Positions 2,396 through 51,202 of a stretch of DNA of 64,000 bases are shown piece after piece. The notes beneath the pieces are model-generated. The model was not told the DNA's origin, made no database searches, and saw only the letters and a list, made by a program, of their open reading frames with translations. The position numbers and the translations under genes were made by a program. The stretch comes from Patescibacteria group bacterium UBA4787 (GTDB lineage Bacteria; Patescibacteriota; Patescibacteriia; UBA2591; UBA4787), in assembly GCA_002402995.1 (NCBI GenBank), contig DHGX01000003.1, positions 3,765 through 67,764 on the forward strand. Reading direction: 5' to 3'. Position 1 is the first letter of the stretch. Every line of letters starts with the position of its first letter.

Positions 2396-5300
2396 GTGAC
2401 CACATATAAACAAAAAATTATTTATGTCTTTTGCCTGCTTTTATGCTTGCCAAATTTTGTTTTGGCTGGCGTTAGCCAAAATGATACCACGGGCGTTTAT
2501 GCGAATACTTTAAGCGACTACACGGGTATAAGCCGGACCAGCAATTTGCGTTTGGATAATGGTAAAATTGCCTTGAGTCAAAATACCAATCATCAATATC
2601 AAGAAGATTTTACCACCGCGGTATATGGCGCTAGTTCCACCGCGCTCTGGGACATTGCGAACCATCGATTATCTTTGAAGTCAAAAAATATTTTTGTGGC
2701 GAAAAATGGACTGGACGCCAATTCAGGCACGGAAGACGCGCCTTTTTTGACCGTGGCCAAGGCGTTGGCAGTGGTTCAGCCGGGCGACACGATCTATGTG
2801 AAAAAAGGGATTTATTATGTAAGCTCATATTTCACGAGCATCGTGGGCACAGCCGACGCGCCTATTACGATTATGCCGTACCCAGGAGATCGTTACCAAG
2901 TTATTTTTGACGGCGAAGGTGTTTCTCTCTACAGTTTTGGCTACTCCTCTTTGCGATACCTGACCATTGACGGTTTCATTTTCCGCAATTATCCCGATGG
3001 CCCGATTTTAGGCGGTCCCTACACATGCGACCACAATATTTATAAAAATAGTATAGTTTACGGCATTCTCCATACCGGCGAGGATATAAATTGCTCTTAC
3101 AATAAAATTATTAATAATTTATATATTGGCGGGCAACAACAGCTTTATTTGCCTAACGCTACAAATAACGCCGCTATTTTGAATAATAGTTTTTTGAAAT
3201 ATTCCAGAGACACAGCTATTTACGCTCCAACTGCTGGTACTGCTGATCACGCGATAAAAAACAACATTTTCTATACCATGGGCAATTACGGGGTTGACGA
3301 TCCCGGTCATTATTTTATTAGTTATCAAAATGGCGGCATTTCCAGTATTGATAATAATCTATATTATAACCCTTTTTCCAATTCTTATTTGTTTCATTAC
3401 AACCACGGCGCTGGCGCAGTATACTATTCCAACAATAGCGCTGATTTTTCCACTTGGCAGGGTTATGGTTTTGACGCGCATTCTTTGATCAATCAAGATC
3501 CAATGTTCACCCCGGGAGACCTCGGTTTGTATTATCTGGCCGCAAACAGCCCGGCCATTGACGCTGGCGCTAATGATTCAGATGTTTCCTATTTAACTGA
3601 CGGCAATTGGTGCACTTCATCTACTAACACGCCTGACACAGGCACCGTGGACATGGGTTTCCATTATTTCTGCGGCACAGCTGAAGCTGTGGCCAATCGT
3701 TATCCCTCTTCTGGGGAAGCGCTTTCTAATGAGATAAACAGCAATGATTTTTCAACAAAAAATGTCAGTAAAGCTACTCTAACCGCTACTTATGATCTCA
3801 ACGGTTTAGCCGCGAGCAATCTGGTATTTTATCTTTCGGCAGATAGCGGCGCCAATTGGGAAGAAGTTACTTCTGGCGTTGAACATACTTTTACTAATAC
3901 TGGCACAAGCTTATATTGGAAAGCTGTTTTAACTACCAACGACGAAACTAAAACGCCCGTGGTCACGCAAATAGTCGTAGATTATACCTACGCGACAACT
4001 CCTGTAACTTCAGCCCAAGAATCTTTTACCGATGATTTTGTGACTCCCTCTTTCCAAAGCGGGACTGAGGGATGGGGAGGTAATGAGACTTTTGGCGATG
4101 GTTCAGGCTTGAGGTTAACATCTACTACCGACTATTGGACTTGGCCTTTACGCAGCAGTGGATCATATACGGTGGGTGGCGTAAATTTAGGCACCGTGCT
4201 TTCACTGCCAGATTCAAACACCTACACCCCTGCCGTGGTTTTAGACAAACAAAACCATCCAGCGGTTTTATTCAAGGTCTACGAAGGCGATCTCGACACC
4301 TATAATCTGTTCTTCGCGCGTTGGAACGGCGCGAACTGGGTTAAAGCCGATGGCGTTGCTGGTTATGATCAAATATTAGCCACTAGCACCTATCAAATCA
4401 CAGAATATAAATTATTGTTTGACACCCAGAATCGCCCATATGTGGCTTTCGCGAGAAAAGAGGCAGACGCAATTCATACTAATGCCTATTTTTCATATTT
4501 TAACGGCACAGCTTGGACCACGGCTCAAAAAATCAGCGGCTCGCCGTCTGATTGGGGTTGGTATCTCGATTTCGCCATAGATGCTAACAACCGGCCTTGC
4601 GTGGTTTTTTCCGGCTACATTGACGCTACTGACTATGAAGATATTTATTTGACTTGTTTAAATAACGGGACCTGGACTTACGCTGATAACACCACTCCTG
4701 GTTTGGAAAATGTCAGCCAAGTTAACCACGCCAGTTATCCAGAATCTGCCACTATTATTTTTGACAATAACAATCGACCGATGGTTGCCTGGACAGACCA
4801 CACTTCAAACCAAGTAGCTTTCACGCGTTGGAACGGCGCAACCTGGACTTACGCTGATAACACCACCCCCGGCATTGAATATTTTGCTAACGCGACTGCT
4901 GACGGAAACGCGCGATTGGCGATTGACGGCTCGGACCACCCGATTTTGGTATGGAGGAACTACACCGTTACAACGGGAGGGAGTTGTGGTTTTAAAAAAT
5001 ATTATAAAACTACGACGACGAATATTTATTTGAATTATTGGAACGGCACAGCCTGGAAAGCTATGAACGGAGTTGATGATGGCCCGGAAACAATACATTC
5101 AAGAACAGCGACCGCCTGCAACTCTACATTACCCGTTAATTTTAAAATGCTTTTAGACTCTAATTTTAGGCCGAATTTTGCGTTTAGCGATTGTGCTTAT
5201 GATCCTGATACTGGCTGGAAGAACGCATTTTTATTTAGCAAATGGAATGGTTCAATGTGGACAGAAGCTGATGGGGCAACGCCTTTTGATTATAATAATT

Positions 5301-8300
5301 ATAATGTCCTTTTTAATGCACATCCTTCATATTTTGTTCTTGATCAAAACAATTATCCCAATTTAATTTTAAGCAACACGTCTTTCACCGCTTGGAACGG
5401 CACAGCGTGGGCTAACCTTATTAACGAAGCCAATACCAGCACAAATCTCGGCGATAATACGGTCACGGGTTTTTTAGTGGACAATGATGATAATCTTTTT
5501 GTTTTTAATTCTTCAAATGTAATCGCCACCTCATATCAAGGTGCTCCAGCCATAGTCGAGTATAACACCCCTGGGCACTATAACGCCAATTACACACCTA
5601 CCGGGCTTTCAACTGATTATACTTATGTGGTGGAAAGTGTTACCATGACCAGCTTAACAACCGATCTTCACGGCTTGGCTGCTTCAAGTTTAAGTTATCA
5701 GGTGCGTTGTTCCAATACAGGCGACTGGGAAACGGTTGCCTTGAACGAACAAAAGACTTTAATTTGCACAAACAATTTGTTTAACTACAAGGCCAATTTA
5801 AGCACCGCTGACCCAAACCAAACTCCAGAAATCAAAAACATCACCTGGCAAATCACCTATAGAGCTATTGACAACGAGGCTGCGGCTAACACGCTTTATG
5901 ACCATAACGACGTTTTGAGCAGTTCCACCACCTTTACTATTGATTCGGCCGCGGCGGTTTATGACGCCACGAACCAGAGGATTAAATTTAATCCTACGCC
6001 TTGGCGGGATTTAGTTAATGAAGCTTATGATCCTACTTATTTAAGCGCCACAGAAACTGGCTTTATGGATAACCCCCAGATCATCACTGACAGCAATAAC
6101 CGTTTGTGCGCAGTTTGGCGCGAAGGCGTTTTCAACAAAGGCGACATTTATTACTCCTGCTGGAGCGGCGCGGCTTGGGTGAAAGCAGACGGCACGACTG
6201 GTTATGATAACGTGAGCAACAATACCGGCGACTCTGATTTTCCTAGGCTGCTTTTGGACAACAATAATTATCCTTACGTGGTTTGGCAGGACAGCACCGA
6301 TAGTCATGCTTCGAGTACGGCCAATTACGACATTTTTTTTAAGTACTATGACGGTTCAACTTGGCGTGGTTTGAAAAACGCCGCGACCCATGACAATTTA
6401 TCGCAAAATCTCGGGCCTTCGTATTATCCGGAATTTGTTTTAGATAGCGTTAACCATTATCCGCAAGTTATCTGGCAGGACAGAAGCGAAGGCTTATGGA
6501 AAATTTATTACACCAAATGGAACGGCGTTGATTGGGTGAAAACCAACGGTGATTCTGGTTACGAGTCGCCCACAGGCCCAGTGATTTCATATCATGACAG
6601 TTTTGAGCGCAAACCGCCGATTCATCAATACGGCAAGATAAAGCTCAATAGCAATAACCAGCCGAATATTTTGTGGCAAGGATATTTTAACGAAGCCGGC
6701 GCCAGTCACACCAAGTCCCAAATATATTTTACCTATTACAATGGTTCAGCTTGGGCAGGCTTGGAAAACGCTTCTTCCACGCGCGATAATGTTAGTAATA
6801 CCACGAGCAGTGACTGGAACATGCAACCCAATCCTGATTTTGCCATTGACAGCAGCAACCGTGTTTACGCGGCTTGGATTGATAATTATCCTGATGTGTA
6901 TGGTGATGGATTTTATTTCAAATATTTTGATGGCAGCAATTGGGTGGGTTTGGCCAGCGCCACTTCCCAGCCGGATTGGATTTTTGATTTTATGCCTGAT
7001 CTTGCGAGCGGCAGTGACGACTACATTTATCATTACACCCAAGTAGAATTAGACAGTCAAAGCCGTCCTCACATCTTGGCTATGAAAACCACGGGTTGGT
7101 CTGTCAACAGAAATAATTGTTATACTTATTGGAACGGTTCGCAGTGGTCAAAAATTGACGGGGTAACAGGCGGTTATGATTCATTTGGCACCGGCGAACA
7201 AGCAGAATTTGTTTTAAAAGATGATTTTCCTTGGGTGATATATAAAACCGATCGAGCAGTTAAATTTGTGAAGGGTACGGCTTCTGGTTTTGAATCAGCG
7301 CAAGGGGTTTCACACCAAACGGTTAACCAAGCCTCAAGCGTTTACCCCGTGATTGCCAAAGCCGGTAACGGCGATATGTACGGAGCTTGGGTGGAGGGTA
7401 GGACCACCGGCCAAGGCAGCCGCTTGGCAATAAAAAAACATAGCGCTTCGTCCACAACCGAACAAACCGCCACGATTATTTCCACCGCAGCTAATTTAAC
7501 GTCATCGGGATACCGATATATCACCTCAGCCACTTTAACCGCCTCAGCCACGCTTAACAACGGAACCATCGTTTATTATTTATCCGCAGACAATGGCGCG
7601 CATTGGGAAGGCCCGATTACTTCCGAGGTGGAGCATATTTTTACCAATACTGGTCGAGTCTTAAAATGGAAAGCTGTTTTAACTGGCGATGGAGTTAATA
7701 AGCTGCCGGAAATTGACGCGATTACTGTGGCTTATAACATCAGCGATTATGCTTCCAGCGGTTATCTTATCTCTAAATTAGTTCAGCCCGCGGAGATCGG
7801 TTCATGGGACAGGGTTGTGGTTAGTCAAACTTTGAACGGCGGTACAGTCAGTTATCAGATTTTAGATAAAAATGGTAACTTAGTGCCTGACAGCGAACTC
7901 ACTGGCAACAGCGCGGGCTTAACTCCAATTGACAGTGAATTAAATATTGCTTCTATAAACGCTTCTAACACCAATTATTCTTCCTTATATATCAAGGCAA
8001 CCGTAAATTCGGCCAACTCAGTTTCTACTCCCACGATTACCAGCTTGAACGCTAAATGGATCAAAGCTAAGGCCGGTAACGATGTAGTTAGTAATGGCGC
8101 TGCTTCTTTTGACGCCACATCGTCAATTGGCGAAGTCTATACTTGCGCTTGGGATTTTGATTCATCGGACGGCGTTGATTGGAATAATCCTGATTCTAAC
8201 TCCTGTCAGGTCGACTATGACTATACCCCCAAAGGCGGCGGTTCTTACACGGCCACTTTAAGAATCAAGCAAGGAACTGCCACGGCTTATGATTATGACA

Positions 8301-10321
8301 CCAGAGTGGTGGCGGTTACCGTGGGCAGCGGTGGCAGCACGCCCACTCCTCCGCCTGCTGAAACTCCTGTTCCAACTACTATTTCTTTATCGCTTAATCC
8401 GTCTTCGCTTTTCGCTGATGCCATTAGCCAAAGCGCGTTGACCGCTGAAGTCTTTGACCAGTTCAATAATCATGTGGCTAACAACACGCCTATCGCCTGG
8501 GATATTGTTTCTGGCAGCGGCTCTTTGGCTTCTGCTTCTACTCCAACCACGAATGGTTTGGCTTCTAACACCTACACAGCCGGCGCTCAAGCAGGCGACA
8601 TTGTCATTAAGGCCTGTACCGCTAATCTCAAATGCAATGAAAAGACATTAACCTTGAAAGCGATTGAAGGACCCTCGGTTTTAACCAGTTTAACCATTTC
8701 CCCTAAAACTCTTTCTTTAAAAAAAGGGCAAACCGCGCAATTCTCCGCGATTGCCAAGGATCAATATAATAATACTTTAACCGGTTTGGTTTTAGAATGG
8801 CTAACCAGTAATTCGTCTCTCGGCCTGATCAATTCCAGTGGCCTTTTTCAGGCTTTGGCTAAAGGCATAGTAACGATTACCGCGAAAAGCGCTGGTCTTT
8901 CTGATCAAGCCGCGGTTACTGTCACTGATACTGACGAGCCAGAGATAATTCTGCCTGTTTCACCTACGCCCGAACCGCCAACAGTTCCAATTACGCCAAC
9001 TCCGACACCCGGAACAACGCCTACGCCTATCCCAACGACACCAGGTGTGGGTACTATTACTACTCCATCGACTGGCGGGTCTGCCTCGCCAAGTCAAGGC
9101 GGGCCAGAAACAGGAATTGGCGTTGGCGCGGAAGCGCCAAGTGAAAATATTCCTATTGTTCAGTTGCCGTCGGTCTTTGAAGAGAAAATAGCTCAACTTG
9201 ACATAGTTTTTGAAAAAGCCAAAGAAATTTATCAAACTAAAATTTTAGAGAATAAAACCGTTCAAAAAGTTAATCAGCAAGCGGCTTTGCCGGTTATCGC
9301 GGTTGTTTCAGCGCTTAACGTGGCAGCCAGTGTTCCAGCCGCGGCTTCGACCCTGCCATTACTCCAATATCTTTTTCAGCTTCTCAAATTCTTTTTCACT
9401 CAACCGGCTTATCTTTTCGTCAGACGACGCAAGTCTTGGGGCACGGTCTATGATGCCATTACCAAACAGCCTGTTGGTTTAGCGATGGTTAGGCTTTACG
9501 AGTTGGTGCCGTCTTTAACCGAACAAGGATCAATCAAGAAATTGGTTCAAACCAAAGTAACCGGGCCGGATGGCCGTTATTTCTTTGCGGTTAAACCAAA
9601 GACCGATTATCAGCTCGAAGTTAATAGTGTCGATTATAATTTTCCTTCAAAATATCTTAACCAACAGCCCAGTGACCGTCTTTATCAAAATTTATATTAT
9701 GGCTCGGTTTTTCGTTCAGGGGCCGAGGGATTGATAAATTTCAATTTGCCTCTTGATTTGCAAGAGGGTAAAACGAGCATCGCCGGCTCAACCAAAAAAG
9801 TTAAGTCGTCATTTGCCAATTTAGAGGAATTTTTCAAGGCTCCGGCAGATGAAAAAGAAAAAGCTTATCACCAAGTTAAGCGTCAAGCCAATTTGAGAAA
9901 ATTGGCTCAAGGAATTTCTTATCTTTCGCCGAGCTTGGCTCTGGTTAATTTAATTATTTCACCCAACGCGCTAACTCTGGTTTTCCTTTTTGTTCATTTA
10001 ATTTTACTTTTTATCTTCAGGTTTTTTAACCCAAATGTTCTAATTAAGTCATTGGGCAGAACCTTCAATCTCAATACCCAAGAGCCGGTAGGCCAGACCT
10101 TAGTTTACTTATTTGAACCCCAATTTAACAAACTCGTTCAAACTCAGATTGCCGACACCAGGGGGAAATACGGTTTCTTGATCGGAGATGAAAAATATTA
10201 TTTGGTCGCTCAAAAACCCGGCTATGTTTTTCCTCAAGACAAAATGGAAATTGTCGGTCAAGCCGAGAGCATGGTGAAGAAAGATTTAGGGATGAAGCGG
10301 AGTCAGCAGAAAACTTCATAA
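2396..10321 (+). CDS. Giant secreted multidomain surface protein (2641 aa). Signal peptide; right-handed beta-helix (pectate-lyase-like) region; 13x ~65-aa WNGxxW repeats; FN3/PKD-like modules; 3 Big_2 Ig-like domains; Pro/Thr-rich linker; C-terminal membrane anchor with 2 CarboxypepD_reg-like domains
   Basis: Single 7.9-kb ORF with GTG start. N-terminal hydrophobic signal (…CLLLCLPNFVLAG). NNxF/NNIFY beta-helix rungs. Repeated D..NRP.V.W…WNG..W blocks. PKD-like WIKAKAGNDV…CAWDFD…GVDWNNPDSNSCQ. Big_2-like LTSLTISPKTLSLKKGQTAQF. PTPEPPTVPITPTPTPG linker. C-terminal TM, RRRKSWGTVYD…GPDGRYFF, TM, QTQIADTRGKYGFLIG…KPGYVFP. Confidence 0.8.
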   Translation: MTTYKQKIIYVFCLLLCLPNFVLAGVSQNDTTGVYANTLSDYTGISRTSNLRLDNGKIALSQNTNHQYQEDFTTAVYGASSTALWDIANHRLSLKSKNIFVAKNGLDANSGTEDAPFLTVAKALAVVQPGDTIYVKKGIYYVSSYFTSIVGTADAPITIMPYPGDRYQVIFDGEGVSLYSFGYSSLRYLTIDGFIFRNYPDGPILGGPYTCDHNIYKNSIVYGILHTGEDINCSYNKIINNLYIGGQQQLYLPNATNNAAILNNSFLKYSRDTAIYAPTAGTADHAIKNNIFYTMGNYGVDDPGHYFISYQNGGISSIDNNLYYNPFSNSYLFHYNHGAGAVYYSNNSADFSTWQGYGFDAHSLINQDPMFTPGDLGLYYLAANSPAIDAGANDSDVSYLTDGNWCTSSTNTPDTGTVDMGFHYFCGTAEAVANRYPSSGEALSNEINSNDFSTKNVSKATLTATYDLNGLAASNLVFYLSADSGANWEEVTSGVEHTFTNTGTSLYWKAVLTTNDETKTPVVTQIVVDYTYATTPVTSAQESFTDDFVTPSFQSGTEGWGGNETFGDGSGLRLTSTTDYWTWPLRSSGSYTVGGVNLGTVLSLPDSNTYTPAVVLDKQNHPAVLFKVYEGDLDTYNLFFARWNGANWVKADGVAGYDQILATSTYQITEYKLLFDTQNRPYVAFARKEADAIHTNAYFSYFNGTAWTTAQKISGSPSDWGWYLDFAIDANNRPCVVFSGYIDATDYEDIYLTCLNNGTWTYADNTTPGLENVSQVNHASYPESATIIFDNNNRPMVAWTDHTSNQVAFTRWNGATWTYADNTTPGIEYFANATADGNARLAIDGSDHPILVWRNYTVTTGGSCGFKKYYKTTTTNIYLNYWNGTAWKAMNGVDDGPETIHSRTATACNSTLPVNFKMLLDSNFRPNFAFSDCAYDPDTGWKNAFLFSKWNGSMWTEADGATPFDYNNYNVLFNAHPSYFVLDQNNYPNLILSNTSFTAWNGTAWANLINEANTSTNLGDNTVTGFLVDNDDNLFVFNSSNVIATSYQGAPAIVEYNTPGHYNANYTPTGLSTDYTYVVESVTMTSLTTDLHGLAASSLSYQVRCSNTGDWETVALNEQKTLICTNNLFNYKANLSTADPNQTPEIKNITWQITYRAIDNEAAANTLYDHNDVLSSSTTFTIDSAAAVYDATNQRIKFNPTPWRDLVNEAYDPTYLSATETGFMDNPQIITDSNNRLCAVWREGVFNKGDIYYSCWSGAAWVKADGTTGYDNVSNNTGDSDFPRLLLDNNNYPYVVWQDSTDSHASSTANYDIFFKYYDGSTWRGLKNAATHDNLSQNLGPSYYPEFVLDSVNHYPQVIWQDRSEGLWKIYYTKWNGVDWVKTNGDSGYESPTGPVISYHDSFERKPPIHQYGKIKLNSNNQPNILWQGYFNEAGASHTKSQIYFTYYNGSAWAGLENASSTRDNVSNTTSSDWNMQPNPDFAIDSSNRVYAAWIDNYPDVYGDGFYFKYFDGSNWVGLASATSQPDWIFDFMPDLASGSDDYIYHYTQVELDSQSRPHILAMKTTGWSVNRNNCYTYWNGSQWSKIDGVTGGYDSFGTGEQAEFVLKDDFPWVIYKTDRAVKFVKGTASGFESAQGVSHQTVNQASSVYPVIAKAGNGDMYGAWVEGRTTGQGSRLAIKKHSASSTTEQTATIISTAANLTSSGYRYITSATLTASATLNNGTIVYYLSADNGAHWEGPITSEVEHIFTNTGRVLKWKAVLTGDGVNKLPEIDAITVAYNISDYASSGYLISKLVQPAEIGSWDRVVVSQTLNGGTVSYQILDKNGNLVPDSELTGNSAGLTPIDSELNIASINASNTNYSSLYIKATVNSANSVSTPTITSLNAKWIKAKAGNDVVSNGAASFDATSSIGEVYTCAWDFDSSDGVDWNNPDSNSCQVDYDYTPKGGGSYTATLRIKQGTATAYDYDTRVVAVTVGSGGSTPTPPPAETPVPTTISLSLNPSSLFADAISQSALTAEVFDQFNNHVANNTPIAWDIVSGSGSLASASTPTTNGLASNTYTAGAQAGDIVIKACTANLKCNEKTLTLKAIEGPSVLTSLTISPKTLSLKKGQTAQFSAIAKDQYNNTLTGLVLEWLTSNSSLGLINSSGLFQALAKGIVTITAKSAGLSDQAAVTVTDTDEPEIILPVSPTPEPPTVPITPTPTPGTTPTPIPTTPGVGTITTPSTGGSASPSQGGPETGIGVGAEAPSENIPIVQLPSVFEEKIAQLDIVFEKAKEIYQTKILENKTVQKVNQQAALPVIAVVSALNVAASVPAAASTLPLLQYLFQLLKFFFTQPAYLFVRRRKSWGTVYDAITKQPVGLAMVRLYELVPSLTEQGSIKKLVQTKVTGPDGRYFFAVKPKTDYQLEVNSVDYNFPSKYLNQQPSDRLYQNLYYGSVFRSGAEGLINFNLPLDLQEGKTSIAGSTKKVKSSFANLEEFFKAPADEKEKAYHQVKRQANLRKLAQGISYLSPSLALVNLIISPNALTLVFLFVHLILLFIFRFFNPNVLIKSLGRTFNLNTQEPVGQTLVYLFEPQFNKLVQTQIADTRGKYGFLIGDEKYYLVAQKPGYVFPQDKMEIVGQAESMVKKDLGMKRSQQKTS
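4310..7150 (+). repeat. Array of 13 tandem ~65-aa WNG-x-x-W protein repeats (coding repeat) inside giant gene 1
   Basis: Recurring (F/Y)x(R/K/Y)WNG(A/T/S)xW…ADG(T/V)xGYD blocks, each preceded by (L/I)DxxN(R/H/Y)Px(V/I)xW. Near-identical 27-nt DNA stretch acctggacttacgctgataacaccac at ~4664 and ~4845 shows a recent unit duplication. Confidence 0.7.
7500..8340 (+). repeat. Module shared with giant gene 2 (FN3-like + beta-sandwich + PKD-like), paralogous to ~11800-12620
   Basis: Protein-level collinear similarity: YYLSADNGAHWEG…WKAVLTG vs YQMSADGGSHWEN…WKTVLTT; WIKAKAGNDVVSNGAASFDATSS…GVDWNNPDSNSCQ…RIKQGTATAYDYDT in both. Confidence 0.7.
9290..10318 (+). repeat. C-terminal anchor module (TM - CarboxypepD_reg-like - 2 TM - CarboxypepD_reg-like) paralogous to 13900-14914 in giant gene 2
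   Basis: RRRKSWGTVYD…TGPDGRYFF and …QTQIAD..G.YGFLIG..KYYLVA.KPGYVFPQDKMEIVGQ…KKDLGMK are conserved between the two giants (~65-90% aa identity over the module). Confidence 0.75.
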
Positions 10322-10534
10322 TTCAAAGAATTTGGACAAAACTGTCTGAAACATTTTTATAAATCGCCGGAATTTTTATCGAAGGGAGATGTTTTGGTTT
10401 TGTCCAACGACTTCGTTTACAAGATAGGAGAAACGATTAAATAAATTGACAGGCGTTGCTCACAGTGATATTCTTAGGATAGATACGCGGAAATTTGACT
10501 ATTGAGTTTTCTATATTTTATAACAATTTCTGAT

Positions 10535-13500
10535 ATGAAAAATTTTGGCCAAAAAATTTCAAAGAATTCGAAATTTTTGTGGTTATTGTTTATAGCAATT
10601 ATATTATCGCCTAATTTTGTTTTGGCGGCTCCCGCGCAAGACAATTCGCGCGGAACTTTTTACGACGACTTTACGAATATCGGCGGCGTTGCCTTGAGCG
10701 CGAATACCGAAGTAGACGTCGCGCATAATTGGATCGGCTTAAAGCCAGACGAACAAGGTGATTATCCGCTTTCCAGCACTTTTGATTTCACTGAAGATTT
10801 TTCCACTAATAATTTTAAGGATACAACTGATTCAATAGACATTGATTGGAATATTAATAATCGGAAATTAAAACTTTTTAAAGAGAATGATTGGACAAAC
10901 CCCGTTTCTATACCAGAAACTTATTTAGGCGGATTGGGCGTTGATACTAATACCAACAAGTTGTACGCTGGCACGGCCGCTAATCGGGAAATTTACGAAT
11001 TACAAGACGCGAGTTTTCAAAAAATGACTGGTCCATGGAACGATGGATGGTTTTATTCTTTTTCATCGTATCAAAATAAATTATACGCCAGCGGAAATAA
11101 TGGAGATTGGAGTACGAGCGACGGGATTTATGTTTACGATGGTTCTTCTTGGTCAATTTCTTCCGGCTCGCCCACAGAAGGATCTGGCAATTCAGCTATG
11201 GCCATGGCTGTTTATGACAATAAACTTTATCTTGGAACGCGCAATGATTTTAATTACGCCAAAGTTTTTTCTTTTGATGGCGCTTCTTGGCAAGACACGA
11301 ATGTCACCAGCACTCAAATAGCGTTTATTTCTTTAGTGGTTTACAATAACAAACTTTACGCCGGTTCGTCTAACGACTCAGGTTGGACAAATCCCGAGGT
11401 CTTTGTTTATGATGGCAATGCATGGAATTTATCAACTCAATGTCCAGACGCTTCTAGTGGAGCGGCACACTTGGTCGTCCACGACAACAAGCTTTATGCG
11501 TCCTGTGAGAATCCGTCTTATGGCAGTCGAATGTTTGTTTACGACGGCGATACTTGGTCAGCAATGGCAAACATAGATTATCGCGTTTATCAATTAATTT
11601 CCTACGATAACAAACTTTACGCCGCTACTTCCAACGGACTTTACGTTTTTGACAATAATTCGTGGGACTTAGAATATCCCGGTTCTGTCGGGGCATTAGC
11701 GGTTTATAATAATCGGCTTTATCTCGGTCTCGGCAATACTGCTAATATTGTTTCTATTGGCACAAATTTTAGTTATTCATCTTCCGGCGTCGCGGTTTCT
11801 CTAAAAATTAATGGCAACGCGTCTGGCGTTCAGTCAGCCAAAATTAGCCCGACCCAGATTCTAAATGGTCAAACCATTAATTATCAAATGTCAGCTGATG
11901 GCGGCAGTCATTGGGAAAATGTTACCCCAGGTTTAGAGCATATTTTTATCCACCCGGGCGATGATTTAAGATGGAAAACGGTTTTAACCACTTCAAACAT
12001 TAGTGCTTCGCCAGAAATTACCAATTTAGAAATTCAATATCAGGCAACTGCTTCCTCGGTCACTTCAATTTCTATCACTCCTTCAGAAGTCGGCTCTTGG
12101 GATAAAATCATTTTTAATCATACTTTAAATGACCAGGCCATTACTTATCAGATTTTGGACTCTTCGGACGCTTTAATACCTGATTCAGTTTTGCCGGGTA
12201 ACGCCGCGGGTTTTTCCGCTAGCGGTACTTCTATGACGATTGATTTGTATGCGCTTCCAAGCGCGACTTATCCGTCCATTAAAATTAAAGCGAATTTGCT
12301 CGCCAGTTGCAATCTTTATACCCCAACCATCAATTCCTGGAAAACTTACTGGATTAAAGCCAAAGCTGGCGATGATATCGCGTCCGGAGGCTCCGCTTCT
12401 TTTGACGCCACTTCTTCTGTTGGTGATAGCTACACCTGTGCCTGGGATTTTGACGTTTCTGATGGCGTTGATTGGAACAATCCTGATTCCAATTCTTGCC
12501 AACCCATTTATGATTATCGTTCCAATAAAGGAGGCGGCATTTACACCGCCTCTCTTAGGATTAAACAAGGAACTGCCACGGCTTATGATTATGACACTAA
12601 GGTCGTCACGGTTAATTTAGGTAGTAGTAGTGACGAAGAAAGCCCTAAATATTTAAATTTCTCCGCTAACCGCCGTATTTTATTGGCTGATTCCCCGAAT
12701 CAGAGCATAATTAGCGCTCAAGTTTTAAACAAAAATAAAAAAGCTGTACTCGACGGGACTACGATTGTATGGAGTCTTCTTTGCCCGAATCTAACCACGG
12801 ACTTCAAAGATCTTGCCTGTGGAACATTATCTAACAATCAAAGTTTGACGGCAAATGGCGCGGTTTCTACAATTTTTACGCCGGGACAATTAGCTGGTTC
12901 AATAATAGTAAGGGGTTGCGCGATCAACGGTGTCTGCGCCGAACAAGCCATCAAGGTGGCTCTTAAGCAGCGCGGAAAAATAATTTTGAAATCTAATTAT
13001 TCTATTTTGCCGGCTGACGGAAAGTCCAGAATAAAAATTTACGTTAAGGTATATGACCGTTATTTGAATCCTTGGTCAAATGTTGTTATTTCTTTAAAAT
13101 TGATTAGTTTAGGCGCGGATCAAAAAGAAATCAAATTCACAGGTGAACTGTCGTCAACAGAGATAAAAACAGACAATAACGGCGAAGCGCTTGTCTATTA
13201 TTCGCCGGGCGAACAAATCGGAAAAATAAAAATTAAAGCTAATATAGAAAGCAATCAATCGTTGAGCGGGTTCAGGGTTTTGAATAAACTGGCTTATTTT
13301 TTAAAATACCTCACGCCTTCTTTTTTAAAATCAACCGCCAGCCATTTTTTTAATTTTGTAATGGCGGCCACGGCCCCAAAAATTTACGCCCCATATCCAA
13401 TTCAACCCGTGCCCATAATTGAGCCCCTTCCGCTTCCGGAAGAAGAAATTCCAGAAGAAGAAATTGTTTTGCCGCCAAATGACGAAGAAGTGGTCGGAGA

Positions 13501-14917
13501 ACTTGACCTTGATTTAGTTGATTCAGAATTAATGACCACGATTGTTGAAGATGAACCTCAGCCATTAGTTCAACCTCCAGATCCATCTGCTCCTACGCCA
13601 CTTTCCGAACAGTCAGGATCCCAAATAGGTGTTCCTAGTGAGAGTTATTCATCAGCGCCGCCGCCGTTACCGGTATATCTTCGCGCTCCAGTTTCGATTC
13701 CTTCAGCAGAAGCCGCGCCGACTATTATTGAAATTCATTATCCCGAGACAAAAGCGGCAGAGACGGCCAGTGATCCGTCTGGCTTTACGGAAATAATTGA
13801 GAAAACAACCGATTTGACACAAAACACAATAAGCGCGGCAACCGTGATCGTTAAAAAAATTCACACAAATCCGACGGTTCAAACTGTTAATCAAGTCGTA
13901 GCGCCAACAGTCTCGGCTGTAACCGTTGCGGCTGTGGCCGCTTCCGGCGCGGCTTCAAGCGCCACCGCCGTTCCTTTATTCAATATGGCTGTTCTTTTAT
14001 TCACCCAGCCTTCGTATCTTTTGACTCGGAGAAGGAAATCATGGGGCACGGTTTATGACTCCCTGTCCAAAGAACCAGTCTCTTTGGCTATAATTCGTCT
14101 TTATGAAATAATTTCGCAAGCTAATGAACAAAATAAAACTAAGAAACTTATCCAAACCCGAGTAACAAGCGCGGACGGACGTTATTTCTTTTTAGTCAAA
14201 CCATATACTAATTATCAAATTGAAGTTGTTTGTAATGGTTATAAATTCCCCAGCCATATTCTGAAAGCAGGCGTTCAAGAAACCATTTATACGGATGTCT
14301 ATTACGGCGAAGTTTTTAATTCTAACGATAATACTATAATTAATCCGAATTTGCCGCTTGATTCGCAGGAGGGGAAAGTTTCTTTGGTCGGTTTTAACAA
14401 AAAAATTAAAACTATTTTTGCCGATTTAGAGCAGTTTCTAAAAGCGCCAATTAATGCAAAAGAAAAAGAATACCGAAGAATCAAAAAAGAGGCCTTGACC
14501 AAAAAGGCGCTTAGGTTTCTTGCTTATCTCGCGCCTATTTTAGGCTTTATTAATTTATTAATTTCACCCAATAAATGGACATCATTATTATTCATTTTGC
14601 AGTTATTAATGCTTTTGGTTTTCCGGTATTTTATTGAGAAGATTTTGCCATATAAACAACATCTAGGGCGCGTTTTTGATATTGACACCAATAAGAATAT
14701 CGGACAATCTTTGATTTATCTTTTTGAGCCGCAATTCGGGAAATTAATTCAAACGCAAATTGCCGACAATGACGGACTCTACGGATTTTTAATCGGCAAT
14801 CAGAAGTATTATTTAGTCGCCGAAAAACCCGGCTATGTTTTTCCCCAAGACAAGATGGAAATTGTCGGTCAGGTCGAAGGCATAGCTAAAAAAGATTTAG
14901 GTATGAAAAAAATCTAG
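10535..14917 (+). CDS. Giant secreted surface protein 2 (paralog of giant 1). Signal peptide; Kelch-like beta-propeller repeats; FN3/PKD-like shared module; Big_1-like Ig domains; acidic/Pro-rich linker; same C-terminal TM + 2x CarboxypepD_reg-like anchor
   Basis: ATG at 10535 (MKNFGQ…; track ORF begins at an upstream TTG, 10502). Signal …LLFIAIILSPNFVLAAPA echoes giant 1. Repeats YDNKLYAGT…VYDG..W (x7). Shared PKD module. EPLPLPEEEIPEEEIVLPP linker. C-terminal module as in giant 1. Confidence 0.8.
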   Translation: MKNFGQKISKNSKFLWLLFIAIILSPNFVLAAPAQDNSRGTFYDDFTNIGGVALSANTEVDVAHNWIGLKPDEQGDYPLSSTFDFTEDFSTNNFKDTTDSIDIDWNINNRKLKLFKENDWTNPVSIPETYLGGLGVDTNTNKLYAGTAANREIYELQDASFQKMTGPWNDGWFYSFSSYQNKLYASGNNGDWSTSDGIYVYDGSSWSISSGSPTEGSGNSAMAMAVYDNKLYLGTRNDFNYAKVFSFDGASWQDTNVTSTQIAFISLVVYNNKLYAGSSNDSGWTNPEVFVYDGNAWNLSTQCPDASSGAAHLVVHDNKLYASCENPSYGSRMFVYDGDTWSAMANIDYRVYQLISYDNKLYAATSNGLYVFDNNSWDLEYPGSVGALAVYNNRLYLGLGNTANIVSIGTNFSYSSSGVAVSLKINGNASGVQSAKISPTQILNGQTINYQMSADGGSHWENVTPGLEHIFIHPGDDLRWKTVLTTSNISASPEITNLEIQYQATASSVTSISITPSEVGSWDKIIFNHTLNDQAITYQILDSSDALIPDSVLPGNAAGFSASGTSMTIDLYALPSATYPSIKIKANLLASCNLYTPTINSWKTYWIKAKAGDDIASGGSASFDATSSVGDSYTCAWDFDVSDGVDWNNPDSNSCQPIYDYRSNKGGGIYTASLRIKQGTATAYDYDTKVVTVNLGSSSDEESPKYLNFSANRRILLADSPNQSIISAQVLNKNKKAVLDGTTIVWSLLCPNLTTDFKDLACGTLSNNQSLTANGAVSTIFTPGQLAGSIIVRGCAINGVCAEQAIKVALKQRGKIILKSNYSILPADGKSRIKIYVKVYDRYLNPWSNVVISLKLISLGADQKEIKFTGELSSTEIKTDNNGEALVYYSPGEQIGKIKIKANIESNQSLSGFRVLNKLAYFLKYLTPSFLKSTASHFFNFVMAATAPKIYAPYPIQPVPIIEPLPLPEEEIPEEEIVLPPNDEEVVGELDLDLVDSELMTTIVEDEPQPLVQPPDPSAPTPLSEQSGSQIGVPSESYSSAPPPLPVYLRAPVSIPSAEAAPTIIEIHYPETKAAETASDPSGFTEIIEKTTDLTQNTISAATVIVKKIHTNPTVQTVNQVVAPTVSAVTVAAVAASGAASSATAVPLFNMAVLLFTQPSYLLTRRRKSWGTVYDSLSKEPVSLAIIRLYEIISQANEQNKTKKLIQTRVTSADGRYFFLVKPYTNYQIEVVCNGYKFPSHILKAGVQETIYTDVYYGEVFNSNDNTIINPNLPLDSQEGKVSLVGFNKKIKTIFADLEQFLKAPINAKEKEYRRIKKEALTKKALRFLAYLAPILGFINLLISPNKWTSLLFILQLLMLLVFRYFIEKILPYKQHLGRVFDIDTNKNIGQSLIYLFEPQFGKLIQTQIADNDGLYGFLIGNQKYYLVAEKPGYVFPQDKMEIVGQVEGIAKKDLGMKKI

Positions 14918-20349: not shown

Positions 20350-20400
20350 GCAAAGCTCGAAATTTCTTCACTCGTAGTCAAATCAAAAGAAGACTTTTGT

Positions 20401-20429
20401 TTGACAACCCCTTTTAGATGATTTATAAT
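20401..20429 (+). promoter_or_regulatory. Consensus sigma70-type promoter (TTGACA-17-TATAAT) upstream of clpP
   Basis: TTGACAaccccttttagatgattTATAAT exactly matches the -35/-10 consensus with 17-nt spacing, ~55 nt upstream of clpP. Confidence 0.6.
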
Positions 20430-22705: not shown

Positions 22706-23019
22706 CCCCGTAATACAACTTCCAGAATGTTCTTCTTTATTTATGTTCTCCAAAGCCTTTCAAAGACAAGAAATTATATATCGGCTATACTAACAATCTC
22801 AAGCAACGAATCAAAGAACATCAAAGGGGCAGATTTTTTTCAACCAAATTCAGATTGCCTTTTCAGCTTATTTATTTCGAGGGCGGTCTTGACGAAAATG
22901 ACGCCAAGCGCCGCGAAGGTTATCTAAAAACCACCCAAGGACGTCGATTCCTTGGTCTAAGATTAATCCAGTACCAACGTCTTAAAAAGGCGCTTGCGGC
23001 TGGAAGATGATATACGGGG
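22706..23019 (+). mobile_element. GIY-YIG mini-element, family 1, full-length copy. Bounded by imperfect TIRs CCCCGTAATACAACTTC / GAAGATGATATACGGGG and flanked by TATG on both sides
   Basis: The same 17-20-nt terminal motifs recur at 44858-44998 (+) and 49359-49621 (-). The right end abuts the ATG of the downstream ymdB-like gene (…ACGGGGT-ATG). Confidence 0.6.
22727..23010 (+). pseudogene. GIY-YIG nuclease superfamily protein (YhbQ/UPF0213-like, ~95 aa) interrupted by a -1 frameshift in an A3 run (~22771-22773)
   Basis: Frame 1 gives MFFFIYVLQSLSKTRN. Frame 3 continues LYIGYTNNLKQRIKEHQRGRFFSTKFRLPFQLIYFEGGLDENDAKRREGYLK… One extra A restores a contiguous GIY-YIG domain. Confidence 0.65.
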
Positions 23020-28264: not shown

Positions 28265-29275
28265 ATGTTTAGAAAATATTTTTTTATTTTATATATTTTT
28301 CTTGTTTTTTTGCTCGTCATTGTGTATTATAGATGGCAGGCGTATGTTCTTTTACACGAAGATTTTGAATTGAAACAAATTAATATTACGCGAGGAGAAT
28401 CAGCGAGTAATGTTATTCAGCAACTCAAAAACCAGAAAATAATTGAAAGCGAACTCGGCTTTAAAATTTATGTTTATCTAAGGAATCGCACGAATCTTTT
28501 TCAGTCGGGTCAATATTATCTTAGTCCGACCATGAGCTGGAAAGAAATTCTTAATCTTCTAACATCAAAACAAGCCAACGAGCAAACTATAGTTGTTCGC
28601 GAAGGATGGACGCAGAGGGAAATAGCCGATTATTTAGAAAAATCAGGACTATTTTCTCAACAGAATTTTATAGCCACTTCTTATCAGCTCGGGTCTTCGG
28701 GTGTTTTGGACTATAGTTTTTTATCAGACAAACCGAGCAATCACTCTTTAGAGGGCTATCTTTTCCCTGATACTTATCGAGTTTATCGCGACGCTAAACC
28801 AGAAACGATCATTAAGAAGATGTTGGACAATTTCAATGATAGGCTTGATTCAGATATAAGAGAAGAAATTGTTCGTCAACATAAAAGTATTTTTGAGGTT
28901 TTAATTATAGCCTCTATTGTTGAGAAAGAGGCTGCCAGTGAAACCGACAGACAACTTGTGGCTGACATATTTTTAAGGCGTTTAGAAAATCGCATGCCGC
29001 TACAATCTTGCGCAACTATAAATTATATTTTAACTCAAAAGACAAAACATCTTAGTCTAGAACAAACGAAAATAGACTCGCCATACAATACTTACAAATA
29101 CTATGGCTTGCCGCCCGGACCGATTGGAAATCCAGGCATAAGTTCAATTAAAGCTGTTCTGTGGCCCGCAAAAAATAATTATTGGTATTTCCTTTCAACT
29201 GACAATAGCCAAATTATTTATAGCAAAACGAATAAAGAGCACGACCTTAATAAAGAAAAATATTTACCCCGTTAG
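28265..29275 (+). CDS. mltG: Endolytic murein transglycosylase MltG/YceG family
   Basis: N-terminal TM; …EGYLFPDTYRV…; …YNTYKYYGLPPGPIGNPG…. The last 3 codons and the TAG stop lie inside a MITE copy. Confidence 0.8.
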   Translation: MFRKYFFILYIFLVFLLVIVYYRWQAYVLLHEDFELKQINITRGESASNVIQQLKNQKIIESELGFKIYVYLRNRTNLFQSGQYYLSPTMSWKEILNLLTSKQANEQTIVVREGWTQREIADYLEKSGLFSQQNFIATSYQLGSSGVLDYSFLSDKPSNHSLEGYLFPDTYRVYRDAKPETIIKKMLDNFNDRLDSDIREEIVRQHKSIFEVLIIASIVEKEAASETDRQLVADIFLRRLENRMPLQSCATINYILTQKTKHLSLEQTKIDSPYNTYKYYGLPPGPIGNPGISSIKAVLWPAKNNYWYFLSTDNSQIIYSKTNKEHDLNKEKYLPR

Positions 29276-29376
29276 AGATTCAGCCGACATTATTTTTATA
29301 GAGAATATTTCGAGCGATAGCGCCTTACGGCTCGCGTCCAACTATCACGCCGTTCGGTCTTAAATCTCTAACGGGG
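29267..29376 (+). mobile_element. 110-bp MITE-like element, copy 1 (14-bp TIR CCCCGTTAGAGATT / AATCTCTAACGGGG; flanked by TTTA)
   Basis: Near-identical ends and central GCC-TTACGGCTC core shared with the copies at 41013-41122 and 49431-49540. Supplies the stop codon of mltG (…TTACCCCGTTAG). Confidence 0.7.
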
Positions 29377-29415
29377 TTTACGTTAAATTAAATAACACAC
29401 ACCCAAAATAATTAA

Positions 29416-32762: not shown

Positions 32763-33057
32763 AGGACCTCCTTAAATTGATTGTTATTTTTCAAAGATCT
32801 TGTTGTTCGATACAACAATATTAGCACAAAAATCGTTTTTTGTCAACCCCGTAGAATAAAATGAATAAGCCAATCAGCGGATCGGCTTATTAAAAAAATA
32901 TTCATTTTCCCCGCCTGCCAGAGCCTTAAAATATCTTTTGAGGGAAAAAATACCTTTTATTTTAATTAAGAGCCAAAATTTATCATAAACACTTTAGGCA
33001 ATTGGCTGGCAGGTCTATGGGGCTTCGGTCTGTAATTATAAATTCTGTATTCTATCG

Positions 33058-33110
33058 TCTTCCGCCAGCTGGCGGATTCTATTTTCTACTTTCTATTTTC
33101 TATTTTCTTT
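33058..33110. repeat. GC-palindrome TCCGCCAGCTGGCGGA followed by tandem CTATTTTCTA(C/T)TTT repeats (member of a recurring intergenic motif family)
   Basis: Same composite motif at 35466-35556, 39497-39578 and in reverse at ~63843-63900. Confidence 0.5.
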
Positions 33111-35475: not shown

Positions 35476-35556
35476 GGCGGATCGGTCTTGGTCTGGCGAA
35501 TTAAAATTAAATTTTAACTTCTATTTTCTACTTTCTATTTTCTAAATTCTAATCCT
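35466..35556. repeat. Divergent intergenic region carrying GC-palindrome TCCGCCCAAGGCGGA and TTCTATTTTCTACTTTCTATTTTCTAAATTCTAA repeats
   Basis: Motif family shared with 33058-33110 and 39497-39578; lies between the divergently transcribed PEGA gene and murA. Confidence 0.5.
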
Positions 35557-36816: not shown

Positions 36817-36950
36817 TTCTTGCCGTTTTAATTATTCGGTGCTATAATTTATGAGCGAGGACGTAAAATAAAAGTCTTCTTTTAATTTGACTCCGAGCGA
36901 ATAAATTTCAGGAGCGAAGCGAATCTTATTAATAAATATAATTTTAAACT

Positions 36951-49358: not shown

Positions 49359-49621
49359 CTTTGGCAAACCCCGTATATCATCTTCGATATTTTTAATAAT
49401 TTTTTAGGTCTTAGTAAGTATTTATGTTTACCCCGTTAGAGATTCAGCCGAGACTATCTTTTGTCGCCCAACTAAGGCAAAGCCGCCTCACGGCTCTTGT
49501 CAATCTCCTAAATATATTTAATTTTAAATCTCTAACGGGGTTTATCAATCTAACTAACAAAATTCTCCCGGGTCTTTTTTGGGCCGATGATAGTCGGCCC
49601 AGTCGAAGTTGTATTACGGGG
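49359..49621 (-). mobile_element. GIY-YIG family-1 element, ORF-less derivative on the minus strand, carrying a nested MITE insertion
   Basis: Reverse-complement termini cgCCCCGTAATACAACTTC … GAAGATGATATACGGGGtttg. Interior matches the 44858-44998 copy except for the 110-bp MITE + TAAA duplication at the TTTATAAA site. Confidence 0.6.
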
Positions 49622-51202
49622 CGTAAAATAAAAACGTTGTTAAACGGAACGGTGGGCGGAGGTTTTGTTATCATCTCAGCCTTCTCGATTATCAGCAGAA
49701 TTTTGGGCCTGTTACGGGATAGATTGCTTTCTTCTCATTTTGGCGTGGGTTCAGTTTTAGATGCTTATTACGCAGCCTTTCGTTTGCCTGACTTGATCTT
49801 TAACACTTTTGTTTTAGGGGCGCTGGCTTCTGCTTTTATTCCGGTTTTCTTAGAGATTTGGCATAAAGATCAAAAAGAAGCCTGGCGCGTGACTAATTCA
49901 ATTCTTAATATTTTGCTGTCAGTTGTTTTTCTTTTGGTTATAGTGATGGAGATTTTCGCCAAACCGATTGTTCAGATTTTGGTTAGTGGTTTTACTCCGG
50001 AGAATATTCATTTAACCGTCAGCTTAACTAGAATTATGCTGATCGGCATTCTATTTTTTACGGTTAGCAATATTGCCGGCGCCGTGCTTAATTCTTTCCG
50101 CCGATTTTTCTTTTATGCTTTAAGCCCGATTGCTTATAATTTAGGAATTATTTTGGGTATCGTATTTTTGGTGCCCATGTTTGGCCTCAAAGGTTTGGCT
50201 TTTGGCGTAGTCCTCGGTTCTTTGATGCATCTATTGGTTCAATTTCCGGCTTTTTTGAAAACCGGTTGGCGTTGGCAGTTGATTTTTGATTTAAAAAATC
50301 AATTCGTGAAAACAATCGGACGTTTGATGTTGCCACGATTTTTCGGCCTGGCCATAGGGCAATTAAATCTTATGGTAGCGACTTTTATCGGTTCTTTATG
50401 GGGTATAGGCGCTATCACTGTTTATAGTTTAGCTTTTAATTTAATCAGTTTTCCTTTGAATATTTTCGGCGTTTCATTGGCCTTGGCGGTTTTTCCTGTT
50501 TTTACCAGCGCTGTTGTTAATAATTCTCGCGAAGATTTTGTTTATTATTTTTCTAAGACCGTCCGCAGAATTTTATTCCTGACTATTCCCAGTATTTTTG
50601 TTATTTTTCTTTTACGCCAAGAAATTGTAGGCTTAATTTTGGGCGCGGGAAAATTTTCTTATGATAATATCAATTCAACCGCGATGGTTCTCGGCGCTTT
50701 CGCCTTGTGTCTTGTCTCTGAGAGCTTGTCTGCAGTTATGGTGCGCGCCTTCTATTCCCACAAAGACACTATAACGCCAGTTAAGGCCGCGATGGTTGAT
50801 TTTTGCGTAAATATAGTCGGATGTTTAATTTTAGGAAGAAAATTCGGGGCATTGGGCTTGGCTTTGGCGTTTTCTCTTTCTTCGATTTGCGAATCTGTGG
50901 TTTTAATTATTTTCTTGAGGTTAAAGACCGGGCCGCTTGATTTTCGACGGATTGTTTCAGCCTTCTTTAGAATCCTAGGGGTGTCTTTGGCGATGTTTTT
51001 GGTTATGTGGGGGACGAAAATGTTTTTATCTTCTTATTTCGCTCAAGATGGTTCATTGTTTTTGTTGAAAAAATTTATTATAATTTCTTTGGCGGGCTTG
51101 GTTAGTTTCTTGGGTTTAACCTACCTCTTCAAATTTGATGAATTTGATGCCGCTTGGAGTGTTTTTCGTTTAAATAAACCAGAAAGAATCAATGGAAAAT
51201 AA
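49424..51202 (+). CDS. murJ: Lipid II flippase MurJ (true start probably TTG ~49637 or GTG ~49652; first ATG 49424 lies in the MITE)
   Basis: …FSIISRILGLLRDRLLSSHFGVGSVLDAYYAAFRLPD… MurJ N-terminal signature, 14 TM. Confidence 0.8.
   Translation: MFTPLEIQPRLSFVAQLRQSRLTALVNLLNIFNFKSLTGFINLTNKILPGLFWADDSRPSRSCITGRKIKTLLNGTVGGGFVIISAFSIISRILGLLRDRLLSSHFGVGSVLDAYYAAFRLPDLIFNTFVLGALASAFIPVFLEIWHKDQKEAWRVTNSILNILLSVVFLLVIVMEIFAKPIVQILVSGFTPENIHLTVSLTRIMLIGILFFTVSNIAGAVLNSFRRFFFYALSPIAYNLGIILGIVFLVPMFGLKGLAFGVVLGSLMHLLVQFPAFLKTGWRWQLIFDLKNQFVKTIGRLMLPRFFGLAIGQLNLMVATFIGSLWGIGAITVYSLAFNLISFPLNIFGVSLALAVFPVFTSAVVNNSREDFVYYFSKTVRRILFLTIPSIFVIFLLRQEIVGLILGAGKFSYDNINSTAMVLGAFALCLVSESLSAVMVRAFYSHKDTITPVKAAMVDFCVNIVGCLILGRKFGALGLALAFSLSSICESVVLIIFLRLKTGPLDFRRIVSAFFRILGVSLAMFLVMWGTKMFLSSYFAQDGSLFLLKKFIIISLAGLVSFLGLTYLFKFDEFDAAWSVFRLNKPERINGK
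49431..49540 (+). mobile_element. 110-bp MITE-like element, copy 3 (nested in GIY-YIG remnant, overlapping the 5' end of the murJ ORF)
   Basis: Same TIRs/core; TTTA on both sides. The empty-site homolog at 44858-44998 has a single TTTATAAA. Confidence 0.7.

Follow-up and report, generated by a model that had tools for sequence, protein, structure and literature searches.

The window analysed here is a 64,000-nt stretch of Patescibacteria group bacterium UBA4787 (contig DHGX01000003.1), and it carries three copies of a 110-bp repeat with inverted ends, at or in the genes mltG, cca and murJ. The copies are mobile DNA, and in other genomes the same ends enclose a gene for a very small GIY-YIG nuclease, which probably mobilises them. 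The copies and their host genes are arranged as follows.

28265-29275, plus strand: mltG (YceG family; Pfam YceG E = 1e-84, residues 39-332 of 336), with its last two codons and stop from copy 1
29267-29376, plus strand: copy 1, 110 bp, TTTA at 29263-29266 and 29377-29380, 5 nt before the native mltG stop
40742-42388, plus strand: cca, class II CCA-adding enzyme with PolyA_pol head and HD domains, containing copy 2
41013-41122, plus strand: copy 2, 110 bp, TTTA at 41009-41012 and 41123-41126, an in-frame 38-codon insert in cca
49424-51202, plus strand: murJ, mechanical open reading frame (ORF) with a Pfam MurJ match from ORF residue 103
49431-49540, plus strand: copy 3, 110 bp, TTTA at 49427-49430 and 49541-49544, nested in a second element of another end family (family B, 49369-49621)

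An earlier, sequence-only reading had described three 110-bp copies with 14-bp terminal inverted repeats and TTTA flanks, and the description holds. The end sequence CCCCGTTAGAGATT has six exact matches in the window, forming three inverted pairs that each span 110 bp, compared with 0.36 matches in shuffled sequence. The copies share one orientation, TTTA stands at either side of each, and the 14-nt inverted ends are perfect in all three. Compared pairwise, their ends are identical at 16/16 positions and their interiors at 51-68%; copy 2 matches the central motif GCCGCCTTACGGCTC exactly, and copies 1 and 3 each deviate from it at one position. No frame is open across the 110 bp of copy 1; one is open in each of copies 2 and 3, and it is incidental. 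A search of the window with an nhmmer profile of the three copies detects no others. We give practically no weight to chance similarity or an assembly artefact, against which stand the six matches where 0.36 are expected, hundreds of copies in independent assemblies, and the presence of the same protein and contig in several public sources.

Empty sites reveal how the copies arrived. In two syntenic relatives the cca site is empty and contains a single TTTA, reading ...AAATTTA followed directly by CTCC or by CGCC, while the filled site in the window reads ...AAATTTA, the 110 bp, and TTTACTCC. For copy 3 the empty counterpart is paralogous and lies in the window itself.

44934-44937, minus strand: paralogous empty site for copy 3, where the uninterrupted family-B copy at 44858-44998 has one TTTA

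This paralogue reads ...TATTTATGTTTA followed directly by TAAATCTAAC, and the filled site reads ...TATTTATGTTTA, the 110 bp, and TTTATCAATCTAAC. Because only one TTTA is present at the two orthologous empty sites and at the paralogous one, insertion with a 4-bp target duplication, as the sequence-only reading had proposed, is proven. The repeats are short and non-coding, possess terminal inverted repeats and a duplication relative to the empty site, and share their ends with a longer coding element in other genomes. They are genuine mobile DNA, namely non-autonomous miniature inverted-repeat elements (MITEs).

Site occupancy also differs between the window and its relatives. The site at the 3′ end of mltG is empty in relative L244 (L numbers are locus handles), where the protein ends in ...KYLN. 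In relative L243 (4039-4149) the same TTTA is occupied by a different variant in the opposite orientation to copy 1; the two interiors are 63% identical and the flanks 83-91% identical, which points to re-use of the site or to replacement of one copy by another. The nearest relative of copy 1 (80% identity) is found at a different locus, in L121, which in addition holds two copies at positions that are empty in the window. Since occupancy differs between the window and L243, L244 and L121, the family has been active since these lineages split, and some sites have been used repeatedly.

Copy 2 is truly inside a coding sequence. Relative to 57 homologues, it adds exactly 38 residues to the head domain of the CCA enzyme, between ...FGVFK and FTPRGF, and the cca genes of the two syntenic relatives, 92% and 85% identical over aligned residues, are precisely without these 38 residues, as expected from the insertion proposed earlier. 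The remainder of the ORF keeps every invariant residue, and the stretch right after the insert is variable in length among homologues. The predicted insert peptide includes FTPLEIQSRYSPWTKSKAKPPYGSGHLFNTFNPKSLTGF. In an AlphaFold model of the enzyme with the insert, built from 58 sequences, the protein is modelled confidently (pTM 0.85, mean pLDDT 87) except for residues 97-133 (pLDDT <50), which form a coil between head-domain strands 87-92 and 138-141. The insert is accordingly modelled as a disordered surface loop of the head domain; the model says nothing on translation.

The other two genes are affected at their margins. The mltG stop codon TAG (29273-29275) falls within the left inverted repeat of copy 1, in agreement with the proposal that this copy supplies the final codons and the stop. 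Because the left end has TAG in that frame, the C-terminus ends in ...KYLPR, and once the element and one TTTA are removed it ends in ...KYLR with a TAA stop. Copy 3 does start 7 nt past the first ATG of the mechanical murJ ORF, where the sequence-only reading had placed it, but it is nested in the family-B element, and both fall between that ATG and the onset of MurJ homology. Because the MurJ Pfam domain begins only at ORF residue 103, the true start probably lies after both elements, at the TTG at ~49637 or the GTG at ~49652, just past 49621, and the location of copy 3 is probably the murJ leader. The broader claim, that the copies are embedded in or overlap essential coding sequences, needs one correction: true embedding in coding sequence applies to copy 2 alone.

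The family extends far beyond this locus. A scan of one genome per species with the pattern CCCCGTTAGAG-N72-100-CTCTAACGGGG returned at least 119 stretches, and 122-123 copies were analysed. Among the matches listed, the labels of the metagenome-assembled genomes span more than 10 phylum-level groups, including Omnitrophota, many Patescibacteria lineages, Planctomycetota, Elusimicrobiota and Nitrospirota, deltaproteobacterial groups, Bdellovibrionales, Ratteibacteria, WOR-3, Clostridia and others. Two scans of 2.9 million viral contigs gave no match to this size class or to the ~279-bp class described below, so the elements are not phage-borne in that collection.

The listed copies define the target and the ends. 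Perfect 4-nt direct repeats flank 78/122 listed copies (64%), compared with 13 when flank partners are shuffled and 2 for the outer four nucleotides used as a control. At both ends, the flanks of the listed copies show T at position -4 (84%) and A at position -1 (83%), with nothing conserved further out. The insertion target is therefore T-N-N-A, or more loosely Y-N-N-R, and the tetranucleotide is duplicated. The modal perfect inverted repeat among listed copies is 13 nt, consisting of CCCCGTTAGAG plus two freely covarying positions. Specifically, position 13 is complementary in 109/123 listed copies, against 39.5 expected, and any of the four bases may stand there; positions from 14 on show no excess. 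What is conserved is thus a 13-bp stem, and the interior is free. Some copies stand in tandem exactly 4 nt apart (L026 6682-6998, L031 529-745, L089 3370-3616 and L080 1273-1398), and 28 very short versions, with 30-90 bp between the same ends, were met incidentally in fetched loci.

The sequence-only reading had further suggested that the insertions are selected to be tolerated and translatable and had called for a check of frame preservation across copies. With the duplication, each window copy adds 110 + 4 = 114 nt, and the frame used in cca is stop-free. Across the family, length + 4 is a multiple of 3 in 65/123 listed copies (p = 9e-6), or in 48/100 after similar copies are collapsed (p = 0.003); lengths of 3n-4 are enriched, and such a length adds whole codons once the 4-bp duplication is counted. 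Stop-free frames also exceed expectation, with a mean of 0.84 per listed copy compared with 0.55 +/- 0.06 when the interior is shuffled. The cca insert is therefore frame-preserving and translatable, and the family as a whole favours such lengths, but most copies are intergenic, and 96/123 listed copies lie outside any long frame open through the element and both sides. Because of this, survival in frame can act only as a filter on a minority of insertions.

About 10 listed copies lie within long open frames, and besides cca the hosts in other phyla include LeuRS, GlyS-beta, RNase R, a UvrD-type helicase and two giant ORFs. The peptides inserted in long open frames read FTPLE...SLTGFT or HPVR...SNGV; a prepilin-like reading of ...SLTGF/TPLEI... 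was dismissed as coincidence. An element-removal test for restored ORFs, with or without the 4 nt, gave counts identical to those of control offsets at 40 codons and hence no discrimination, and only cases of at least 100 codons were used, as anecdotes. In cca the insert is read as ...KSLTGF, the frame that the parent element, described below, uses at its right end to encode the last residues of its own protein (...FLSLTG). The stop-free ends accordingly derive from a coding end, and the palindrome mirrors them; since the right end has to be read as protein in the parent, and since both ends together form a palindrome, two of three frames per strand are stop-free across both ends.

The window copies fold strongly. 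As RNA they form a 15-bp terminal stem (-35 to -45 kcal/mol, z = -4.8 to -6.6) with the TTTA flanks unpaired, and as single-stranded DNA (ssDNA) they form a 15-bp terminal stem with the TNNA flanks, TTTA in the window, likewise unpaired (z = -4.6 to -5.9); in either form, every shuffle folds less well. The strong RNA stem, for which a fold had been suggested earlier, would suit an element that acts at the RNA level, either as a self-splicing or bypassed insert or as a structured regulatory RNA, in which case the cca insert would never be translated. We consider this very improbable. No Rfam family reaches its gathering score anywhere in the window, the best weak match to copy 2 at permissive thresholds has E = 0.21, and conservation of the terminal 13 nt alone, with free interiors, is a poor fit to a ribozyme. 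Moreover, the cca insert is stop-free and 3n long, which would not be needed if it were removed from the RNA, and 110 nt is below the length of known self-splicing introns.

The same ends also enclose a gene. In genome loci L111 and L001 they bracket a GIY-YIG ORF (Pfam GIY-YIG E = 3e-15), and a metagenome scan with these ends at a spacing of 240-270 nt returned at least 120 stretches with 124 elements (L123-L242). Among these 124 listed elements the modal length is 279 bp, and 107 have an ORF of 84-90 aa. The 107 ORFs specify 99 distinct proteins with a median pairwise identity of 70%, in which Y..Y, YTG, R, H and E are conserved at 95% or more; the spacing of the catalytic residues matches that of I-TevI. 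The start of the ORF is 17-23 nt in from the left end, and its coding sequence continues as far as the final nucleotide of the element; the right end encodes its last residues, S-L-T-G, and its stop codon is usually in the 4-nt flank, as TGAA or TAAA. The ~279-bp elements hold nothing but two ends and one 86-residue GIY-YIG gene.

The 86-aa protein is a single domain, a bare catalytic domain in which PF01541 covers residues 2-68. Its family comprises more than 7000 proteins at E <1e-5, most of them exactly 86 aa and generically named, and a separate count at 50% identity gives 7783 clusters. No specific NCBIfam model was found for it, and the nearest solved structures are the uncharacterised UPF0213 proteins 1ZG2 and 1YWL. 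Judged by their shared ends, the 110-bp copies can be assigned as miniature relatives of this widespread element. The sequence-only reading had named the GIY-YIG mini-elements of the window as the only candidate partners acting in trans. The enzyme type survives this comparison, since ~100/124 listed elements with the ends of the 110-bp copies encode the 86-aa protein, with the correction that both genes in the window have other ends and look frameshifted. Because nearly all ~279-bp elements that share these ends code for an intact 86-aa GIY-YIG protein, the guess of a GIY-YIG partner is strongly supported.

Several further observations concern the ~279-bp elements themselves. L150 and L194 represent one locus and are near-identical, differing only in the right 4-nt flank (CAAA vs TGAA); it is speculation that flank nucleotides travel with the element. 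Some elements are central in longer palindromes (L189, L234) or lie within a hairpin loop (L131). In a subset within L132-L239 (e.g. L150, L152, L139 and L176), many elements occupy differing positions in one recurring host sequence, which encodes ...QFKVVFDAIRQL..PEPKKRIGF..VEEPKVPY... and may be a multicopy gene or another mobile unit serving as a landing pad.

Two further end families with GIY-YIG genes occur in the window; we refer to the ends of the 110-bp copies as family A.

22706-23019, plus strand: family-B coding element, 314 bp, GIY-YIG (PF01541, E = 3e-14) with the ORF split by a frameshift, TATG/TATG flanks
42394-42681, plus strand: family-C element, 288 bp, 19-nt perfect inverted repeat CCCCTCACTTGAAAAAGAT, GIY-YIG, directly after the cca stop
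44858-44998, plus strand: family-B miniature element, 141 bp, TATG/TATG flanks, the uninterrupted inverted copy
49369-49621, minus strand: family-B miniature element, 139 bp plus the nested 114 bp, ends CCCCGTATATCATCTTCGA and CCCCGTAATACAACTTCGA

Family B has the end sequences CCCCGTAATACAACTTC / CCCCGTATATCATCTTC. In the element at 44858-44998 the right-hand TATG includes the likely start codon of a GT2 glycosyltransferase gene, and the corresponding place in relative L121 is a gap of just 70 nt. Both window copies with TATG/TATG flanks are positioned precisely on gene start codons, so that the ATG of the host gene is restored by the duplication. Another family-B copy (L120 1524-1665) has TTTA/TTTA flanks. 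The family-C ORF is an intact 87 aa in relative L120 (11602-11888) and is frameshifted in the window by one extra A in an A-run; at the corresponding site in L121 (from 11512) and L122 (from 1738), the left end is kept and the rest is replaced by a nested palindromic element (CCCCGTAGTGAACTTCGA...). Metagenome loci L130 and L145 hold two more types of GIY-YIG mini-gene with other long inverted repeats. As the different GIY-YIG mini-genes (B, C, L130 and L145) have different inverted repeats, protein and ends covary.

This covariation bears on whether a conventional DDE transposase encoded elsewhere, IS1380/piggyBac-like or IS5-like, moves the elements and the GIY-YIG gene is just carried along, as a passenger or an addiction gene. 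The T-N-N-A duplication of 4 bp and the CCC termini do resemble piggyBac (TTAA, CCC...GGG) and IS1380 (4-5 bp, CC ends). However, different GIY-YIG subfamilies have different ends, and in ~100 independent listed copies under purifying selection the GIY-YIG ORF takes up the whole element and extends into its right end, unlike a passenger. In addition, no end pair surrounds a transposase-sized segment in 1.5 Mb of fetched loci, with collection scans reaching spacings of ~600 bp; the sizes of end pairs cluster at 60-125 bp and 262-291 bp, and the sole 2.5-kb pair (L043) brackets ordinary genes, a CapA-like gene and CTP synthase. We regard a DDE transposase as an unlikely source of mobility.

The closest described precedent is Ssn, a group of 94-residue single-domain GIY-YIG enzymes that bind a stem in ssDNA and cut a few nucleotides upstream, the loop being dispensable (PMC11893778). 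Ssn genes are flanked by their cognate repeat, an arrangement that the authors likened to an insertion sequence (PMC11893778; Chenal et al., Nat Commun 2025). As with Ssn, the family described here has a GIY-YIG protein of ~90 residues that consists of one domain and lacks a DNA-binding domain, its gene is bracketed by a stem-forming repeat that is amplified in the genome, and protein and repeat covary. Furthermore, the stem binding, upstream ssDNA cut and dispensable loop of Ssn fit the 13-nt stem, the TNNA flank and the free interior found here. The two differ in that the Ssn repeat is a self-contained hairpin of ~28 nt, whereas here each end of the element supplies one half of the stem, and in that target duplication, empty sites, miniature derivatives and in-frame insertions have not been reported for Ssn. 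Ssn has been described mainly in Pseudomonadati, and the present family lies in Patescibacteria, Omnitrophota, Planctomycetota and others. The published Ssn repeat motif (SRM), HGTCWYN(0-2)YYVSBRHN(0-5)WNVSBRGN(0-2)RNCYNB, has no match in 103 kb around the 124 elements and none in the window.

The likeness to Ssn raises the question of a domesticated system, in which an Ssn-like nuclease serves the host in the control of incoming ssDNA or of recombination and the repeats spread by recombination or slippage. Ssn/NTS modulates transformation in Neisseria, and its authors proposed domestication (PMC11893778). Among the listed 279-bp elements, 32/87 are co-oriented with a host ORF that begins no more than 40 nt downstream and 5/87 show the opposite arrangement; this placement directly upstream of host genes would suit a host function, and it also suggests that the elements depend on host transcription and translational coupling. 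Against domestication stand the clean empty and filled sites with 4-bp duplications, site occupancy that differs between close relatives, copies that are nested or in tandem 4 nt apart, copies inside essential coding sequences, the occurrence of elements in metagenome-assembled genomes labelled with more than 10 phylum-level groups, all of them typical of selfish mobile DNA, and the absence of the published SRM motif. We consider domestication rather improbable.

We therefore favour, as the probable explanation, that the 110-bp repeats are non-autonomous copies in a widespread family of minimal elements and are mobilised by the 86-aa GIY-YIG nuclease, which would act in trans on any DNA bounded by both ends. 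The nuclease would recognise the stem formed by the two ends, probably in ssDNA, as related Ssn nucleases do, and would cut at the T-N-N-A/CCCC junctions, mobilising whatever DNA both ends bound; joining would presumably be left to host repair. Insertions in essential genes would then survive only where a tolerant loop receives them in frame and without a stop, as is the case in cca (+38 residues) and at the end of mltG (+1 residue).

Some points weigh against this explanation. Perfect direct-repeat flanks are present in only 17/108 listed 279-bp elements, TTTA...TGAA being frequent, and insertion of the 279-bp elements may for this reason differ from that of the miniature copies. The two GIY-YIG genes of the window (families B and C) both look frameshifted, and no family-A GIY-YIG gene was found within the 64 kb. 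GIY-YIG nucleases hydrolyse DNA and are not known to perform strand transfer, which leaves the origin of the 4-bp duplication unexplained. A 4-bp duplication with CC... termini also typifies DDE transposons of the IS1380/piggyBac type. Finally, we infer the link between the 86-aa protein and these ends from their arrangement in sequence.

Compared with known systems, the family combines features that are otherwise separate. Like the classical bacterial MITEs (Correia, ERIC and those derived from IS630 or IS5), its copies are short and non-coding, with inverted repeats, a duplication, many copies and insertion polymorphism, but the parents of classical MITEs encode DDE transposases, whereas only GIY-YIG genes were found between the same ends here. 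With piggyBac and IS1380 it shares a 4-bp duplication of a T..A tetranucleotide and termini starting CCC, but it measures 0.1-0.3 kb instead of 1.5-2.5 kb and has no associated DDE transposase. As in REP/BIME-RAYT and IS200/IS605-PATEs, hairpin-forming repeats would be amplified by a small nuclease acting on ssDNA; those systems, however, use an HUH (Y1) tyrosine enzyme and make no duplication, in contrast to GIY-YIG and 4 bp here. Free-standing GIY-YIG homing endonuclease genes, such as seg of phage T4, are likewise selfish nuclease genes, but they have extra DNA-binding domains, spread by repair of the cut allele, and possess no inverted repeats, duplications or miniature derivatives. The 86-aa protein, a bare catalytic domain in an element with inverted repeats and a duplication, is not a homing endonuclease of that kind. 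Integron attC sites (GTTRRRY/RYYYAAC cores) were also considered and rejected, as their half-sites are in the opposite order.

A further parallel is offered by the Rickettsia palindromic elements (RPEs), palindromic repeats of ~100-150 bp that lie in frame in unrelated housekeeping genes without destroying the protein (Ogata et al. 2000; PMC10969869). The present family likewise places a palindromic repeat in frame in unrelated protein genes (cca, LeuRS, GlyS-beta, RNase R, UvrD-type helicase and two giant ORFs). Compared by description, RPEs differ in being confined to Rickettsia and without a known partner enzyme; in the present family a nuclease gene lies between identical ends, the duplicated target is defined, and the majority of copies fall between genes. 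In the literature we found no description of GIY-YIG elements with inverted repeats, duplication, miniature copies and in-frame inserts, the Ssn paper being the sole close precedent.

The window contains other repeats. A GC hairpin (CCGCCAGCTGGCGG) followed by short repeats of the TTCTA/TTTCT type stands at three gene ends (33042-33108, 35505-35550 and 39518-39571). Large diverged direct repeats of 60-83% identity, ~4.3-4.6 kb apart, span 3867-14907, with internal repeats ~0.36-0.92 kb apart at 4322-7177; the repeats in 3867-14907 are probably tandem paralogous genes for large surface proteins. Two inverted-repeat pairs were also noted, 20359-20405 / 36863-36909 (47 nt, 87% complementarity) and 46433-46472 / 56107-56146 (40 nt, 78% complementarity), the latter adjoining tRNA genes.

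To our knowledge, recognised bacterial transposons all rely on DDE/DEDD, HUH, serine, tyrosine or Cas1-type enzymes, and GIY-YIG is not an enzyme type known to drive them. As a bolder and tentative proposal, which we hold to be somewhat less probable than even, the ~279-bp units could be the smallest autonomous DNA transposons and a new class, with an 86-residue Ssn-like GIY-YIG protein as the transposase (13-bp stem, T-N-N-A cut), and their miniature derivatives could be the long-sought type of agent that seeds RPE-like in-frame palindromic inserts in essential genes across phyla. If the role of the nuclease is as we propose, a bare GIY-YIG domain would constitute a new enzymatic route to transposition, and the recently described Ssn nucleases would gain a natural biological role. 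The enzyme is tiny and its substrate would be simple and programmable-looking, consisting of any loop, a 13-bp stem and a TNNA flank. In-frame palindromic inserts in essential proteins, a question open since the RPEs of Rickettsia, would have a concrete and testable explanation, and thousands of genes of uncultivated phyla that are now named 'GIY-YIG nuclease family protein' or 'excinuclease ABC subunit C' would be flagged as mobile elements.

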